From: Sporosarcina sp. FSL K6-1508
GTDB lineage: Bacteria; Bacillota; Bacilli; Bacillales_A; Planococcaceae
Length of the DNA: 40,000 nt
Assembly (NCBI RefSeq): GCF_038007465.1
Contig: NZ_JBBOXF010000001.1
Location: 1,206,275-1,246,274 of the forward strand
Direction of reading: 5' to 3'
A program made the translations under genes and the position numbers. Below the pieces are notes generated by a model. It did not search any database. It was not told the DNA's origin and saw only the letters and a program-made list of their open reading frames with translations. Positions 27,898-35,636 of the stretch are shown one piece after another; within the stretch, counting starts at the first letter, position 1; each line of letters starts with the position of its first letter.

Positions 27898-28236
27898 ATG
27901 GATGAATTCAAATTTACCCCTAATCAATATTATGTTGATGAAGGTCGGCGCAGATTCGCCGATATAGCCAATTACGCAATTATTACGATTGACGGAGAGG
28001 GCTATGAGTACCCGATTGCCGAGACTATAAATCGTGATGGTTTCTTCAAGCATTATTTTGACGTAGAGGACGAGCCGGTGGGGAACATCGAGCGTATCGA
28101 GTTATTCACGGAGAGCGGCGCTTCTTTAGGTTCTGGAGTAGGGTATATAGAAAAGGGAGACGACGGCTGGCAGATTGCCATTAAGTTGTTCGTCACGCTG
28201 AAGGAGGATGAAGAGAATGACGCATCCGAAGGTTGA
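27898..28236 (+). CDS. hypothetical tail protein (112 aa)
   Basis: TAAATG junction with the previous gene. Confidence 0.45.
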   Translation: MDEFKFTPNQYYVDEGRRRFADIANYAIITIDGEGYEYPIAETINRDGFFKHYFDVEDEPVGNIERIELFTESGASLGSGVGYIEKGDDGWQIAIKLFVTLKEDEENDASEG

Positions 28237-28591
28237 GCTGGGTGATTTATTAAATGAAAAGTATGATTACGATCCAACAGTTTGGCATGACAAGGTAGAT
28301 GATCCAGAAGGCGACCGCAGCCATCCTGGTGTAAAGTTCACCGCTAAGCGCGGGAATAACCTGGAGACTGGTTCTGATCTTGCGCATGATCGGTTGAATA
28401 ACGTTGTTGATTATCTAGAAGACGCGGATCGCACGCAGAAAAACCTACGTTTCGAGTTTCTGCTGCTAAAAGCTTCAGTCACAAGTGGCCTGACGTCCAA
28501 TATTTTTGTCGACAATTTCGGGTCGCTCGACGGAATCAATTTAACTGCTGGTGTTCATGATCCAGAATTGCAAAGGGTTTACTTGCCTTGA
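28217..28591 (+). CDS. small tail protein, possible fibre anchor/adaptor (124 aa)
   Basis: AAGGAGG lies 10 nt before ATG 28217. The stop overlaps the avd TTG start. Confidence 0.45.
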   Translation: MTHPKVELGDLLNEKYDYDPTVWHDKVDDPEGDRSHPGVKFTAKRGNNLETGSDLAHDRLNNVVDYLEDADRTQKNLRFEFLLLKASVTSGLTSNIFVDNFGSLDGINLTAGVHDPELQRVYLP

Positions 28592-28926
28592 CCAAGAAGT
28601 TTGACATCGAGAAAAAGGCCGAGGAGGCACTGGACTACGCTTATCCAATTATCATGAATTTTCCTAACTCCGAAAAGTTCGCTCTGTCCCAGGAAATAAA
28701 GCAGGCGTTCTATGCTTTGTTGCGTTATATAATGTTGGCGAATAACGTAAAAAACAAGCGAAGGGAATATCAAGAGGAGGCAGACGCGAATCTGAAGCTG
28801 GTGATAGTTTTGTTCAACATTTCCAAAAGACAAAAGTATATCACGCAGAAAAAGAATATTCAGCTGCAGACTCGACTGGCCGAGATCGGTCGGATGATCG
28901 GTGGATGGATGCGAAACACTAAATGA
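28588..28926 (+). CDS. avd: DGR accessory variability determinant (Avd; four-helix-bundle, 23S rRNA IVS-protein family)
   Basis: 112 aa and basic. NFPNSEKFALSQEIKQAFYALLRYIMLAN matches the P..EKF.L..Q signature of this family. Immediately upstream of the TR and RT. Confidence 0.8.
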   Translation: MTKKFDIEKKAEEALDYAYPIIMNFPNSEKFALSQEIKQAFYALLRYIMLANNVKNKRREYQEEADANLKLVIVLFNISKRQKYITQKKNIQLQTRLAEIGRMIGGWMRNTK

Positions 28927-28947
28927 AATATAGAGGGATGGGACTGG

Positions 28948-29042
28948 ACGGCTCGAACCGTGTCAATCGCGGCAACAACTCAGCTCGTAACTTCAACAAC
29001 ACGACTGCTTCGAATCGCAATGTGAACATCGGTTGGCGCCCG
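28948..29042 (+). repeat. DGR template repeat (TR), 95 bp
   Basis: Ungapped match to 30803-30897 (offset 1855), 84/95 identical. All 11 mismatches are at TR adenines. Non-coding location between avd and the RT. Confidence 0.9.
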
Positions 29043-29189
29043 CCTTGTTAGCTAGAACCACTTTACGATCAGTATGTTTACGGATGTACTGACGGGTCTT
29101 TGAAATAGAACTTCAAGGGAGTCCCATTCCTTCGTCATCTCGAGACGTAAACACATGAATAGTCGTAACGCCGACCGAAAGGAGCCGTT
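28948..29189 (+). ncRNA. putative DGR RNA (TR plus ~147-nt spacer preceding the RT gene)
   Basis: By analogy with characterised DGRs, where the TR and downstream spacer are transcribed and prime cDNA synthesis. No structure has been verified here. Confidence 0.4.
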
Positions 29190-30266
29190 ATGGCGAAAAA
29201 AGTTTTTAAGTATGATGATCTTTATGAAAAAATAATAGCATTTGAAAATCTTGAGTATGCATATAAGCAAGTCATAAAAGGGGAGCGCAAGTTTAAACCA
29301 GACGCTGTCCTTTTTTCTATGCTTTCAGATTTGAACCTGGTTAATCTATGGCGTGATTTAAAGACTGGGAAATATCAAGTCGGCAAGTATATACGGTTTA
29401 AAGTCTACGAACCTAAAGAGCGATGGATTTCGGCGCCTACCTTGCGTGATAAGATCGTTCAATTTGCGGTCCATTACATTATCAAGGATGTGTACAAAGG
29501 CGTCTTTGTTTCGGACTCTTATTCCTGCATTGAAGGCAAAGGCACGCATCGCGCTGCTCATTCGGTTCAACGAGACCTAAGAATTGCCGAACGCGAATAT
29601 AAAGATCCCTGGATTGTCTCGGCAGACGTCAAGAAATTCTTTTACTCAATCGATCGGTCGATACTCAAGCGTCTACTACGTAAGAAGATAATGTGCCGGA
29701 AAACTCTATGGCTGCTCGATTTGATTATCGACAGCAGCCCTGAGGGTGACGTCGGTATTCCGTTGGGTAATGTAACCAGTCAAGATCTCGCTAATATTTA
29801 CATGAATGAGGTGGATCAATATGCACAAAGATTTCTAGGCATCAGGTATTACAACAGATACGCTGACGACATAATCGCTGTAGTTGACGGAAAAAAAGCG
29901 GCGCAAACCCTTAAGCGGGATTTGTGTCGTTTTTTAAATGAACGGCTGAACCTTTCGGAACACGAGGAGAAGACTCAAATTTTTCCGCATGCCCAGGGCG
30001 TCAATGCTTATGGGTACAAAATTTGGGCGTCCCACATGCTTGTCCGTGATCAATCGAAGCGCGGCGTAAAGAGGCGTATGAAGTCGATGGATAAAAAGTT
30101 GAGTGCTGGAGAAATCGAATTGCACGATGTGCAGCAGTCGGCCAACTCTTGGATTGGTCATGCTCGACATTCCAACTCGTACAACTTGGCAAAAAAGATA
30201 TTTTCCCCGTACCCCTACATTGATATTGAAGGAGATGAATACTTTGGCAACAGGCGATTTAATTAA
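29190..30266 (+). CDS. DGR reverse transcriptase
   Basis: 358 aa. Catalytic YADD (NRYADDIIAVV). The IPLGNVTSQDLAN motif (GxxxSQ) is characteristic of DGR RTs. AAAGGAG RBS. Confidence 0.9.
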   Translation: MAKKVFKYDDLYEKIIAFENLEYAYKQVIKGERKFKPDAVLFSMLSDLNLVNLWRDLKTGKYQVGKYIRFKVYEPKERWISAPTLRDKIVQFAVHYIIKDVYKGVFVSDSYSCIEGKGTHRAAHSVQRDLRIAEREYKDPWIVSADVKKFFYSIDRSILKRLLRKKIMCRKTLWLLDLIIDSSPEGDVGIPLGNVTSQDLANIYMNEVDQYAQRFLGIRYYNRYADDIIAVVDGKKAAQTLKRDLCRFLNERLNLSEHEEKTQIFPHAQGVNAYGYKIWASHMLVRDQSKRGVKRRMKSMDKKLSAGEIELHDVQQSANSWIGHARHSNSYNLAKKIFSPYPYIDIEGDEYFGNRRFN

Positions 30267-32538
30267 ATTAGGTACTTTTTTCAAAGCAAATGCAAAGCAG
30301 TTATTGCCAACTAACCCGTGGCGAAGTGGATCCACGCCAGGCGGTGGAAATATCCCGGTATTTGCCGCAGGGCAAGCGTTAGAAGTTAGGGACACCGATC
30401 CGAACGATGCATATAAACTGCGCTGGCGCGAGCTTGTTATCGGCTCGAAGAAACTGCTGATTGCAGATAGAAATATCCTGGAACAGGTATCTTGGGATGA
30501 TTTAAACGCCCAGGGCCTCGTTACAGGGAAAGAAATCACTATTGACGGCCAACAATATAAACTCCGCTTGATGACAGGTGGATCGAATTACCGGAACACG
30601 TCAGATGCTTACGCAGGTGGAACGCCAACCGCGAATGAATGGGATCAGATTATTTCCGGAGAAGCGAATTATCCAGGGCTTCCAAAACCCGCAGCTTCGG
30701 ATTTGGATTCTTCTTTAGTTCCAGCTGACCAAACGAGCGCACACAACCAGTTTTGGAATTGGTATTACATGTACAGCTGGGTTCAGGAAGTATATGCTCC
30801 AAACGGCTCGTACCGTGTCTTTCGCGGCTACCACTCAGCTCGTTACTTCTACTACACGTCTGCTTCGAATCGCTTTGTGAACATCGGTTGGCGCCCGGTC
30901 TTGGAAGTTCTGAATTCTGCACCTCTGATCTCCGGAGGTACTCAAGATCTCGGGAACAAAACAGCGCCTTTTGCAGTGGAGTACCAGGTTGTTGATCCAG
31001 AAAATGACGCGGTAAGCGTTGTCGAAAAATTAAACGGAGTCACAATCCGGACGATTCCTAATGTTTCGCAAGGGGCGACACAAAAGATCGAGCTTACAGC
31101 TGCGCAATGGGCCGCAATCCCTCTGAATGTCGCATCGACAATAACTGTCGAGGCGACCGATTCTAAAAATGCGAAATCAACCAGGGTCTACACGTTCACG
31201 AAAACCAACGCGCCACCGACAGCGACGGCGATCGAGCCAAAAGGAGACCTTTCCAATATCGCGATTGTCGATACACTCACGCCTATTCTTGTCCATTCTT
31301 TTCACGATATTGACGTAGGTGATTCGCAATCTGCCTATCAATATGTTATTGAGAACCTTCAAAATGATGTCGTGCATGATTCAGGCAAAAAATCTTCAAC
31401 CCAATCGTTCTACCAAGTTCCTGCATCAGTATTGAATTGGGGAGACCGAGTAAAGTGGAAAGTTCGTGTGTGGGATCGCTTTGATGTGCCATCCGAGTAT
31501 TCATTCCCGGAGTTTTTCATGCCCAACCGAGCGCCGTTCGTAACGAACCTTCAGCCTGGCAGCAATGACGCAGAGAATCCAATGGGTGCGGGAATGGCCC
31601 CGGAGTTCTCTTGGGATTTCGAGGATCTGGATTTAGAGGCACAAGCGGCCTATCAGCTGAAGATATTTAAAGCATCTGACGACGTGCTTGTCTATGACTC
31701 GTCTCGCGTTAATCAAAACGTGCAAAAACACCAAGTACCAACTGGCCGATTGGCAGAGGGTACTATTTTTTATGCCATCGTTACAGTCTGGGATCCGAAT
31801 GGTTTAAAAAGGGACAGTGAAAAATCGTACATTCGAACGAATGCAACGCCGAGCGCCCCTCTCCAAACGGGTCCGATTGATAATTTCCGGACGACGCTGC
31901 AGCCGACTTTCTCGGGGGTTATTGGAACCGATCCGGAGGATGACGGGATGCACTTCGCGATTCAGATTTCAACCGATCCGACCTTTGTACAATATTCCCT
32001 TACTTATCGTAGTGATGTGGATCGCGCTGGCTGGAAAGTGAATGGTTATGATATTCCGGAGGCTGGTGTATTTAACGATCAGCAAGGTCAAACGGTTTCC
32101 TATGCGCTGCAGGTCGGTCTCGATCGGAACAAGACTTACTACTGGCGAATGGCTGCGGTTGACGCCGGAACGAAAGCGCGCGGCGTGTGGTCGGTTAGCC
32201 GTCGAATACGTGCAGGGAATGAGCTCAGCTTCGGCATTAAGAATCCAATCAGTACGCTGGGTGTGGCGGCTCGCAGGATCTTGTTTGCGGCCGACTACCA
32301 ATTGCCGACCGATGGCAGCAATAAGGCGACTATCAAAGTCGAGTTTTCTAATAACGCGCTTGACGCTGCTCCGACATGGGAAGATGCGACTGCGCAATTC
32401 TTATCGATGGATTATTACAACTTCACAAACACAGATAAGACAGCGGTTGAATTCGCCATCGGAGTGCGTGTGTCAATCATCGCGAATGATTCGATGGCCC
32501 CAATCAGCATTGAAGCTATCGGATTGACGTTTGATTAA
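30235..32538 (+). CDS. DGR target protein: N-terminal lectin/FGE-like variable domain plus C-terminal beta-sandwich repeats (putative receptor-binding tail fibre); start ATG 30235 or TTG 30244
   Basis: Contains the VR. The VR-encoded segment YRVFRGYHSARYFYYTSASNRFVNIGWRPV resembles the R-x-x-RGG....R-x-A-x-R....IGFR ends of FGE/CLec-type DGR targets. Overlaps the RT 3' end. Confidence 0.8.
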   Translation: MNTLATGDLIKLGTFFKANAKQLLPTNPWRSGSTPGGGNIPVFAAGQALEVRDTDPNDAYKLRWRELVIGSKKLLIADRNILEQVSWDDLNAQGLVTGKEITIDGQQYKLRLMTGGSNYRNTSDAYAGGTPTANEWDQIISGEANYPGLPKPAASDLDSSLVPADQTSAHNQFWNWYYMYSWVQEVYAPNGSYRVFRGYHSARYFYYTSASNRFVNIGWRPVLEVLNSAPLISGGTQDLGNKTAPFAVEYQVVDPENDAVSVVEKLNGVTIRTIPNVSQGATQKIELTAAQWAAIPLNVASTITVEATDSKNAKSTRVYTFTKTNAPPTATAIEPKGDLSNIAIVDTLTPILVHSFHDIDVGDSQSAYQYVIENLQNDVVHDSGKKSSTQSFYQVPASVLNWGDRVKWKVRVWDRFDVPSEYSFPEFFMPNRAPFVTNLQPGSNDAENPMGAGMAPEFSWDFEDLDLEAQAAYQLKIFKASDDVLVYDSSRVNQNVQKHQVPTGRLAEGTIFYAIVTVWDPNGLKRDSEKSYIRTNATPSAPLQTGPIDNFRTTLQPTFSGVIGTDPEDDGMHFAIQISTDPTFVQYSLTYRSDVDRAGWKVNGYDIPEAGVFNDQQGQTVSYALQVGLDRNKTYYWRMAAVDAGTKARGVWSVSRRIRAGNELSFGIKNPISTLGVAARRILFAADYQLPTDGSNKATIKVEFSNNALDAAPTWEDATAQFLSMDYYNFTNTDKTAVEFAIGVRVSIIANDSMAPISIEAIGLTFD
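30803..30897 (+). repeat. DGR variable repeat (VR)
   Basis: Cognate of the TR. Substitutions occur only opposite TR adenines (10 A->T, 1 A->C). Ends in the GC-rich GGTTGGCGCCCG shared with the TR. Confidence 0.9.
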
Positions 32539-32924: not shown

Positions 32925-33116
32925 TTGACTTTAGATTTATCTGAAGCGGCATTGCAGAACGGAAAGGGCAAGAGTTCGAATGCGCTGCTGCTGGACGTGA
33001 TCACCGCGCAGGAGGATTTATTGAACGCTAAAAATGCGGCCATGATTAGCCTGTTAAACGAAAATGTTGAGCAAGAAGCGTTGATCGATGAATTGCTGAA
33101 AGACCATATTGATTGA
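32925..33116 (+). CDS. hypothetical small protein (63 aa, TTG start)
   Basis: Open frame followed by a terminator. Confidence 0.4.
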   Translation: MTLDLSEAALQNGKGKSSNALLLDVITAQEDLLNAKNAAMISLLNENVEQEALIDELLKDHID

Positions 33117-35192: not shown

Positions 35193-35264
35193 GGCCCCTT
35201 GGTCAAGCGGTTAAGACACCGCCCTTTCACGGCGGTATCACGGGTTCGAATCCCGTAGGGGTCA
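35193..35264 (+). tRNA. tRNA-Glu (UUC)
   Basis: Cloverleaf folds by hand. Anticodon loop CTTTCAC. Near-identical to the Bacillus tRNA-Glu I recall. CCA is not encoded. Confidence 0.95.
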
Positions 35265-35348
35265 TTAGAACTTTTTTGACACGCAAAGCGTGACGAAAAT
35301 AGTTTGTCTTGAACTTAAGATTTAAAATAAGTTCACAAATTTTAACTT

Positions 35349-35432
35349 GGTGGGGTAGCGAAGTGGCTAAACGCGGCGGACTGTAAATCCGCTCCTTCGG
35401 GTTCGGCAGTTCGAATCTGCCCCCCACCACCA
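35349..35432 (+). tRNA. tRNA-Tyr (GUA)
   Basis: Long variable arm, anticodon loop CTGTAAA, encoded CCA. Confidence 0.95.
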
Positions 35433-35561
35433 ATAAAACTTTTTCAATACAAAGCATTGAAAAGAGTTTAAATTAATTTTTTATGCAAAGAATTGAAAAG
35501 AGTGCACCTTGATTTTAGTATCGTGTGTTGAGATGAGCTTTAAAATATTCTAATTACTTAT

Positions 35562-35636
35562 TGGGGTATAGCCAAGCGGTAAGGCAACGGACTTTGACTC
35601 CGTCACTCGTTGGTTCGAATCCAGCTACCCCAGCCA
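35562..35636 (+). tRNA. tRNA-Gln (UUG)
   Basis: Anticodon loop CTTTGAC; acceptor TGGGGTA/TACCCCA; encoded CCA. Confidence 0.95.

Follow-up and report, generated by a model that had tools for sequence, protein, structure and literature searches.

Diversity-generating retroelements (DGRs) are, to our knowledge, the only natural systems by which specific proteins are hypermutated in prokaryotes, and tools for directed evolution are being built on them. Those with the accessory protein Avd make up architecture B (Wu et al. 2018, PMC5758913). The prototype is the DGR of Bordetella phage BPP-1, which has the order mtd-avd-TR-brt, where TR is the template repeat and brt encodes the reverse transcriptase (RT). 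One report describes an Avd-binding stem-loop, a 'cPRT Stop' duplex and a template:primer duplex in the BPP-1 ribonucleoprotein (RNP), with the same elements predicted in 207 other Avd-containing DGRs (10.1101/2023.10.23.563531). Faecalibacterium phage FP_Mushu also carries a DGR (NC_047913; Cornuault et al. 2018, as cited in PMC11792537). In tentaclins, the variable repeat (VR) is in an N-terminal C-lec domain, which is followed by a chain of immunoglobulin (Ig)-like domains that ends in a conserved Ig-like anchor at the C-terminus (Baykov et al. 2023, PMC10743442). Weinberg et al. 2017 tied only one RNA motif, RT-10, to a DGR, that of BPP-1, and speculated that other RT motifs serve other DGRs (PMC5737381). 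We analyzed a stretch of 40,000 nucleotides (nt) from the chromosome of Sporosarcina sp. FSL K6-1508 (contig NZ_JBBOXF010000001.1, positions 1,206,275 to 1,246,274), hereafter the window, and found in the tail module of a myovirus-type prophage an avd-TR-RT-target cassette that is very probably a complete, apparently functional DGR of the kind known from FP_Mushu and the tentaclins.

The repeat pair and its relatives

The cassette consists of the following features, with lengths of proteins in amino acids (aa).

28588-28926, + strand: avd, DGR accessory protein; 112 aa, TTG start; WP_340793079.1, NCBI name DGR protein Avd
28948-29042, + strand: TR; 95 nt, 25 adenines, non-coding
29190-30266, + strand: DGR reverse transcriptase; 358 aa, with IPLGNVTSQ and YADD motifs
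30235-32538, + strand: target gene; 767 aa, the same as WP_340793081.1
30803-30897, + strand: VR; encodes target residues 190-221, with an invariant G-W-R-P motif at its end
30886-30897, + strand: GC-rich 3' end of VR, GGTTGGCGCCCG, resembling an initiation of mutagenic homing (IMH) site; identical in TR at 29031-29042

TR and VR differed only at template adenines. A repeat search of the window found a single direct repeat of 95 nt, with a spacing of 1855 nt and 88% identity, and an independent alignment at that offset was gapless with 84 of 95 positions identical. All 11 mismatches were at positions that are adenine in TR (28956, 28965, 28966, 28974, 28977, 28989, 28995, 28998, 29004, 29019 and 29020), and VR was the same as TR at 70 of 70 non-A positions. 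With 25 adenines among 95 nt, the hypergeometric chance that 11 mismatches all fall on A is 5.7e-8. Ten of the changes from TR to VR were A-to-T and one was A-to-C, and all 11 were at codon positions 1 or 2. The sequence-only reading that preceded this analysis had given the coordinates of TR and VR, the offset, the identity and the 11 adenine positions, and every one of these was exact in the repeat search and the alignment. It had also given the open reading frames (ORFs) correctly: 28588-28926 (112 aa), 29190-30266 (358 aa, with LGNVTSQ and YADD) and a long ORF ending at 32538.

The homology has sharp limits. Identity collapsed beyond both ends of the repeat in the alignment, and the shared 3' end of TR and VR is the GC-rich GGTTGGCGCCCG, both as the sequence-only reading had described. 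Relatives keep GGnTGGCGnCCCG at the 3' end, followed by CCTTGTTAG in TR and TCCTTGAAG in VR; in the window, divergence comes directly after GGTTGGCGCCCG, with CCTTGTTAG in TR versus GTCTTGGAAG in VR. By analogy with BPP-1, GGTTGGCGCCCG would be the initiation-of-homing site. A pattern with N at every TR adenine and at most three mismatches matched only the TR and VR sites in the window (0 expected from 100 shuffles), and thus no second VR was found there.

The genes on either side of TR encode DGR proteins. Avd matched Pfam bAvd (PF22296, E 5e-25) and PHROG 3206, 'Avd protein of DGR' (E 1e-26), and passed the NCBIfam equivalog DivGenRetAVD (88.3 bits, cut-off 80), so that what had been called an Avd-like ORF can be named Avd; its match to the BPP-1 Avd structures 4dwl and 8ub7_B was weak. 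The RT had as its best match in the PDB the Bordetella phage bRT (8ub7_A, E 4.7e-50, 174 bits), with residues 8-334 aligned, including IPLGNVTSQ and YADD, whereas the best group II intron RT reached 81 bits (E 5.9e-22) and retron-labelled, Drt and Cas-RT chains scored lower still. It also matched Pfam RVT_1 (E 3e-20) and PHROG 1423 (E 1e-120). Judged by these scores, the window RT resembles Bordetella phage bRT much more than it does the RTs of group II introns, and its earlier placement in the DGR clade, and not with group II introns or retrons, was upheld.

The composition of TR allows wide variation with no risk of truncation. Read in the frame of VR, TR is Asn-rich, with ten AAC/AAT codons plus ACG, ACT, ATC, GAC and TCA. 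Its adenines are at codon positions 1 or 2 in 24 of 25 cases, and the remaining one is at a third position where changes are synonymous. TR adenines occur in sixteen codons; ten of these are AAC/AAT, from each of which 15 amino acids are reachable, and no A-to-N change in TR can give a stop codon. The repertoire derived from TR is 4^25 DNA variants, or about 1.5e14 protein variants.

The same adenine-specific pattern was found in related cassettes. RT relatives were drawn from viral contigs and from genomes. Relatives at 55-71% RT identity have the same avd-TR-RT-target layout, with VR about 600 nt past RT; those at 38-48% RT identity mostly have the canonical target-avd-TR-RT order. For 13 cassettes with the same layout (the window and 12 relatives), 150 of the 164 differences in the compared TR/VR spans were on TR adenines, and the non-A remainder was mostly 3' of a conserved CCCG, where TR and VR diverge. 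Most of the 45 closest viral-contig RT relatives that we screened had a TR/VR pair mismatched on TR adenines. Named hosts of the relatives included Rummeliibacillus, Bacillus, Anoxybacteroides, Brevibacillus, Paenibacillus, Clostridium, Tepidibacter and Maledivibacter, and the layout is common to FP_Mushu and many Bacillota prophages, mostly of Bacilli and Clostridia.

TR and VR have changed in concert in the lineage. Two prophages, L006 and L007, share 96% identity across 11 kb and have identical TRs; all 14 of their VR differences are opposite TR adenines, and the VRs diverge by 15% versus 2-4% in the flanks. Another pair, L009 and L008, has 18 VR differences, of which 17 are at TR adenines and the eighteenth mirrors a T-to-C change in TR. 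The nearest relative of the window, L166, has about 80% DNA identity, and its Avd clusters with that of the window at 90% identity. The TRs of the window and L166 differ at 10 positions, and at all nine of these that have no A in either TR, each VR carries the base of its own TR; the TR/VR mismatches within L166 are all at A (12/12). In 54 full-length homologues of the target, mean entropy was 2.62 bits at codons with a TR adenine, 0.86 at other VR codons and 1.24 over the whole protein. VR differences among related genomes are thus on TR adenines, as the sequence-only reading anticipated, and the one exception follows a change in TR; TR itself does vary between the window and L166, yet each VR tracks its own template. 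Based on these sequence comparisons, we conclude that TR-to-VR transfer with adenine mutagenesis has operated in the lineage of the window, and the earlier proposal of a complete DGR with the signature of adenine-specific retrohoming is supported by Avd, the RT, the repeat pattern and the relatives.

The substitutions in the window VR are rich in T. The ten A-to-T changes give five Tyr, two Phe and one Ser codon, and the A-to-C change gives His. Over the 13 cassettes, A was replaced by G 69 times, by T 55 times and by C 26 times, and we estimate the chance of at least 10 T among 11 substitutions at the pooled T frequency as about 3e-4. The T-rich substitutions are probably due to selection for an aromatic-rich binding surface and not to RT bias.

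Some related records bear on how such cassettes are recovered from sequence collections. An exact look-up of the RT protein, for a window element with another VR, gave only the short-read contig L083, which is apparently from the same strain and is identical over 29043-30910. L081 and L082 (protein P0002), which are listed under one 4.74-Mb Sporosarcina chromosome, represent a second prophage, apparently of the same genome, with a paralogous RT and tentaclin (73% identical) and its own VR. Its TR is truncated in these contigs, and the first 30 nt past it are identical to window 29043-29072. We set aside as unlikely the possibility that the window TR templates this paralogous target, because the VR of the paralogue differs from the window TR at many non-A positions. 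Contigs from short reads (Logan) break at the repeats: L083 and L081 begin at the first base after TR, and L083 and L166 end 13-14 nt past VR. DGR cassettes of the window type would thus often be split between contigs and missed by contig-based DGR finders. Separately, Maledivibacter halophilus M1 has three copies of the cassette region (L090, L091 and L098) that are 100% identical over 8277 nt, including the VRs, which suggests very recent multiplication of the prophage or an assembly duplication, with copies that have not diversified.

RNA helices around the template

The 147-nt spacer between TR and the RT gene contains a known structured RNA, and strands in the spacer can pair with sequences on both sides of TR. 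The elements, with helix lengths in base pairs (bp), are as follows.

29067-29164, + strand: spacer RNA, Rfam RT-9 (RF03080); 79.3 bits versus a gathering threshold of 46.1, E 7e-12, model positions 1-92 of 92
28934-28945, + strand: 5' strand of a 12-bp duplex, AGGGAUGGGACU; between the avd stop codon and TR, pairs with 29120-29131
29120-29131, + strand: 3' strand of the 12-bp duplex, AGUCCCAUUCCU; within a stretch that is conserved but unpaired in the Rfam RT-9 consensus
29069-29092, + strand: hairpin with a 10-bp stem and a UACG tetraloop at 29079-29082; candidate Avd-binding stem-loop
29043-29047, + strand: CCUUG, strand of a 5-bp helix directly 3' of TR, adjoining G29042; candidate template:primer duplex
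29114-29118, + strand: CAAGG, spacer partner strand of the 5-bp helix, pairs with 29043-29047

RT-9 accompanies DGRs of this type. It was present between TR and RT in 20 of 20 closer related cassettes scanned, and RT-14 (RF02921) fills its place in more distant DGRs (L027, L031, L034, L036, L038 and L041). From this distribution, RT-9 (and RT-14) are best described as DGR spacer RNAs, with the partner strand of RT-9 lying outside the current Rfam model. A match to Ocean-V RNA inside the RT gene (23 bits versus a gathering threshold of 75) was dismissed as chance.

The helices are supported by covariation. We aligned 22 related cassettes and used slid positions and 500 shuffles as controls. The 12-bp duplex that brackets TR was paired in 100% of cells and had compensatory double changes at 8 of its 12 pairs. 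The hairpin at 29069-29092 had compensatory changes at 8 of 10 pairs, and its tetraloop was UACG in 18 of the 22 sequences. One position in it was unpaired in 14 of 22 and may be a flipped-out base; this hairpin fits the Avd-binding stem-loops described in section 10 of 10.1101/2023.10.23.563531. The alignment also confirmed the second RT-9 hairpin. Taken jointly, the three helices (the 12-bp duplex and the two RT-9 hairpins) were paired in 97% of cells, with 19 of 26 pairs compensatory; slid controls gave 36-48%, and none of the 500 shuffles reached the observed covariation. All three are fully paired in the window row. The 5-bp helix was paired in 94.5% of cells, with compensatory changes at three of five pairs. 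An alternative pairing of CAAGG with 29098-29102 inside the spacer was less supported (80.6% paired, one compensatory pair), and we retained it only as a possible alternative conformation. These RNA helices were detectable only by comparison, because the signals from a single sequence were weak: the fold of the whole TR-spacer RNA was not significant (z -0.39), and single-locus duplex energies relative to shuffles had z of 0 to -3.4.

The two TR-flanking helices coincide with the limits of the homology. On the 5' side, 2 nt separate the upstream strand of the 12-bp duplex from the first base that TR and VR share, and on the 3' side the 5-bp helix abuts G29042, the last such base; these placements would explain why TR/VR identity stops at both ends. 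By analogy, the 12-bp duplex is a candidate stop element for synthesis of complementary DNA (cDNA), and the priming nucleotide is probably within 29114-29118 or the next 2 nt. The window helices match the elements described in the BPP-1 RNP and predicted in the 207 other DGRs; that they play the detailed roles assigned to them here is, in our judgment, about as likely as not.

Carrying the mechanism over from BPP-1, we propose the following. A late transcript would run from the 3' end of avd through TR into the RT-9 spacer. The 12-bp duplex (28934-28945 with 29120-29131) would close TR into a loop, the UACG-capped hairpin at 29069-29092 would dock on Avd, and the 5-bp helix (29043-29047 with 29114-29118) would set a spacer nucleotide beside the template base G29042. 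The RT-Avd complex would then prime in cis and reverse-transcribe TR, starting at G29042 and reaching about 28948, where the 12-bp duplex would halt cDNA synthesis; any base could be placed opposite TR adenines. The resulting cDNA of about 95 nt would replace VR at 30803-30897. On the virion, the conserved C-terminal domain would hold the target on the baseplate and the variable domain would be shown at the tip of a flexible Ig-like chain, giving the phage a large repertoire of receptor specificities.

The DGR copy in the window is probably active today. It could instead be a fossil, that is, a DGR that was active in the recent past but no longer diversifies its target (e.g., because host factors or expression are missing), leaving VR fixed. 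For the window copy, sequence collections contain a single VR sequence. No promoter-like (sigma-70-like) site was found upstream of the cassette. The substitutions, 10 of 11 A-to-T and including the five Tyr and two Phe codons, look selected and possibly frozen. Some details of the RNA and the repeat also count against a complete and working element: the 5-bp helix is short, and 29098-29102 could compete for its 3' strand; the GC-rich 3' end has no TR/VR difference, and a distinction between IMH and IMH* is visible only in the flanks; and no significant hairpin or inverted repeat was found downstream of VR (best fold z -0.95 versus shuffles), nor was one conserved in relatives. A fossil is nevertheless unlikely. 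Both avd and the RT gene are full length and the catalytic YADD motif is intact, the three covarying helices are fully paired in the window, and TR retains its 25 adenines and carries no stop-codon risk. VR is perfect at the 70 non-A positions, and background decay would be expected there without homing, as related prophages differ by 2-4% in the flanks.

The cassette is probably transcribed as part of the late operon. The first terminator-like site on the + strand with a G+C-rich stem is at 33115; earlier there is only a weak 5-bp candidate (32327-32341) inside the target gene.

The target protein and its prophage

The target is of the tentaclin type. Its start is most likely the ATG at 30235, which gives a protein identical to that at NCBI and overlaps the end of the RT gene by 32 nt. 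VR is located in the N-terminal quarter of the protein and not at the C-terminus. The domains of the target and the ORF upstream of avd are as follows.

30235-32538, + strand, target domains: aa 1-225, N-terminal VR domain; then about five beta-sandwich (Ig/Fn3-like) domains, the last of which is the conserved C-terminal anchor
28208-28591, + strand: ORF upstream of avd; 127 aa, blastp matches to FP_Mushu gp48 (E 4e-8) and Brevibacillus phage Emery gp24 (E 5e-7)

AlphaFold2 modeled the full-length target with a pLDDT of 89.8, as beads on a string, with a globular N-domain (about 225 aa) in front of some five beta-sandwich domains. The N-domain modeled alone had a pLDDT of 90.1 and a pTM of 0.88. 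The last 115 aa of the target match the C-termini of the tentaclins nd12 (E 2e-7) and nd4 (E 2e-6), the FP_Mushu target (E 7e-9) and Emery gp25 (E 3e-24), and the N-domain is 52% identical to that of the FP_Mushu DGR target. We assigned the anchor by these C-terminal matches; the seven-residue C-terminal consensus of tentaclins is given in a figure only (PMC10743442). Foldseek of the full-length model against the PDB gave tandem Ig/Fn3 matches (E 1e-13), in which generic chains dominate, and these are uninformative for the VR domain.

The N-domain is probably lectin-like. Its top 45 Foldseek matches in the PDB were EgtB, SenA, FGE, PvdO, CarF or the DGR variable protein TvpA, with the exception of one PorK/PorN entry. 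Its BFVD matches were to jumbo-phage virion structural proteins (E 4e-10) and to proteins with DUF6273 (E 2e-4). We did not adopt DUF6273 for this domain, as the profile comparison gave a probability of 12.6% and covered the VR motif only. Pfam saw only Ig_Rha78A_N in the target and no family for the N-domain in any of 76 homologues, and a sequence-profile search of the N-domain against the PDB gave nothing relevant. Based on the C-terminal matches and the models, the target is best classed as a tentaclin with a probably lectin-like N-domain and not as a classical fibre with a C-terminal VR. The sequence-only reading had proposed a hypervaried receptor-binding protein in the tail-fibre region; the place of the gene in the fibre slot stands, with the refinement that the protein is a tentaclin with its VR in the N-terminal domain.

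The scaffold domain that carries VR is, by its sequence and model matches, widespread in phages. BFVD relatives of the N-domain model (30235-30945) include paralogous proteins of PhiPA3, Noxifer, EL, and the Erwinia phages Rebecca, RisingSun and PhiEaH1, and tblastn also found 7 Pseudomonas phage records and Clostridium sporogenes phages.

The target is probably attached to the baseplate by its C-terminus with the variable N-domain distal. A different reading makes it a Hoc-like decoration protein, of the capsid or otherwise, with glycans or surfaces in the environment as its ligands, in which case the DGR would tune adherence and not host range. PHROG 10993, 'Hoc-like head decoration', matched with E 9e-33, the homologue in FP_Mushu carries the annotation Hoc-like head decoration protein (PMC11792537), and a chain of Ig-like domains is typical of such proteins. 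The receptor-binding reading is itself tempered by two points: the virion location comes from gene order only, and the lectin fold of the N-domain is weakly backed, with E-values in the PDB Foldseek search all above 0.01. However, we find a decoration protein doubtful. The gene is in the fibre slot (baseplate J, Mu gp48-like, two small ORFs, DGR core, target, an ORF with a weak XkdX-like match, holin region, endolysin), there is no other candidate fibre, and the target is the sole large ORF between the baseplate and lysis genes. The same slot in Brevibacillus phage Emery, which has no DGR, holds the tentaclin-like gp25. Finally, the tentaclin C-terminal domain is unlike the Hoc capsid anchor (PMC10743442).

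The avd-TR-RT core seems to have been inserted between the fibre-slot gene and a small, conserved partner of it. The tentaclin-like gene of Emery is preceded by a homologue of the 127-aa ORF, which had no Pfam or PHROG match; Emery gp24 sits directly before gp25. This arrangement suggests that the 127-aa ORF marks the insertion point of the core, and the ORF may encode an attachment or assembly partner of tentaclins.

The prophage has a conventional order. Upstream of the cassette are RusA, a methylase, terminase, capsid, sheath, a large ORF in the tape-measure position (without a Pfam match), YqbQ-like, baseplate J, Mu gp48-like and two small ORFs. After the cassette are three small ORFs (one weakly XkdX-like), the presumed holin region, an M23 endolysin, three tRNA genes and host genes. 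The tRNA genes (tRNA-Glu, tRNA-Tyr and tRNA-Gln, at 35193-35636) directly follow the endolysin gene where the prophage ends on the right, and may be the integration site; host genes beyond them encode GGDEF/EAL, arginase and an ECF sigma factor. A blastn search in distant mode with the cassette DNA found no match among GenBank phages.

The names of the target and the RT in public annotation do not convey their functions. RefSeq calls the target 'glycoside hydrolase family 78 protein', and the protein has only Ig_Rha78A_N accessory domains and no catalytic domain. The annotation pipeline PGAP presumably gave this name because Pfam sees only the Ig_Rha78A_N domains, and it is probably a mis-annotation that is spreading to homologues (P0002, P0010, P0013, P0057 and P0059). 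For the RT, NCBIfam models scored below their cut-offs (group_II_RT_mat, 128 bits versus 300; Drt3a, 80 versus 200; retron St85, 56 versus 235), and an Rfam scan of the window gave neither a group II intron nor a retron RNA. We rejected a group II intron, retron or defence RT, as no such model reaches its curated cut-off. It is hardly credible that the repeats are an ordinary duplication or partial gene conversion beside an unrelated RT, with a coincidental or compositional A-only pattern: although the RT also scores on group II, retron and Drt models and NCBI labels it 'reverse transcriptase/maturase family protein', bRT leads all other matches by 90 bits, a genuine Avd is encoded alongside, the A-only pattern has the low probability given above, the pattern recurs in most related cassettes screened, and the VR differences of near-identical prophages are only on TR adenines.

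Two aspects of the element could be combined in a broader reading, which we put forward as tentative: that there is an RT-9 class of DGR in which two RNA helices set the ends of TR and its cDNA and a spacer guanosine primes synthesis, and that the target is the only tail fibre, mounted by a C-terminal anchor with a variable N-terminal tip. Retrons prime from guanosine and BPP-1 from adenosine. If this reading were true, work on DGR priming and termination would gain in this clade a second model system that is compact and well defined, and the window target would be an example of a hypervariable receptor-binding protein of inverted polarity.

Comparison with described systems

The element does not change what is known of DGR biology. 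It is a clean and compact example in a cultivable aerobic Bacillales host, with all parts within 4 kb and a single target. New here are the description of the target, the concerted TR/VR change in the lineage, RT-9 and RT-14 as DGR spacers, and a helix that reaches outside the RT-9 model. The practical value is mainly in annotation, i.e., the names of the target and RT in RefSeq and RT-9 as a DGR spacer RNA.

The window DGR shares its core with that of BPP-1. Both have Avd and an RT of the same clade, adenine-specific TR/VR differences, and an AAC-rich, stop-free TR. Both have a TR-RT spacer of about 147 nt with a tetraloop-capped hairpin, a duplex that brackets TR, and a short TR:spacer helix near the likely start of cDNA. 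The arrangement of the target differs: the BPP-1 target is upstream of avd, whereas that of the window is downstream of RT and overlaps its end, and the BPP-1 VR is at the C-terminus of an Mtd-type protein, whereas the window VR is in the N-terminal domain of a multi-domain protein. BPP-1 uses a hairpin structure downstream of VR, and no hairpin was detectable after the window VR. BPP-1 cDNA starts at G117, inside TR, whereas TR/VR homology in the window ends exactly at the presumed initiation base. The presumed priming base is probably G in the window and is A in BPP-1.

The spacer RNAs can be compared with the Rfam motifs RT-9, RT-10 and RT-14 (PMC5737381). The BPP-1 spacer is RT-10 and that of the window is RT-9, which is full length, high scoring and just upstream of the RT gene. 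Beyond that work, RT-9 was always found after a TR in our cassettes, and part of its 'unpaired' stretch pairs upstream of TR, outside the model.

FP_Mushu is closer in gene order. It shares the succession baseplate J, Mu gp48-like, small ORFs, avd, TR, RT and target, with TR between avd and RT. Its VR is about 450 nt into the target, with 11 of 11 differences at A. The N- and C-terminal domains of the two targets are homologous, and gp48 is homologous to the 127-aa ORF of the window. The hosts differ, with gut Clostridia for FP_Mushu and an aerobic Bacillales soil/food bacterium for the window. The FP_Mushu target is shorter (574 aa versus 767 aa) and the middle domains differ, being Rha78A_N/Fn3-like in the window; its RT is annotated as 417 aa, versus 358 aa. 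FP_Mushu is a transposable Mu-like phage, and there is no such evidence for the window prophage.

The target resembles the tentaclins encoded by target1 of nd4 and nd12 in its N-terminal VR domain, Ig-like chain and conserved C-terminal Ig-like anchor. Unlike the nd4 and nd12 tentaclins, its N-domain is not DUF6273, and at 767 aa it is longer than the phage tentaclins described (313-649 aa). The window DGR has one target, whereas nd4 and nd12 have two each. Based on these comparisons, we are confident that the window element belongs to architecture B, with a downstream target, and to the known Mushu/tentaclin family.

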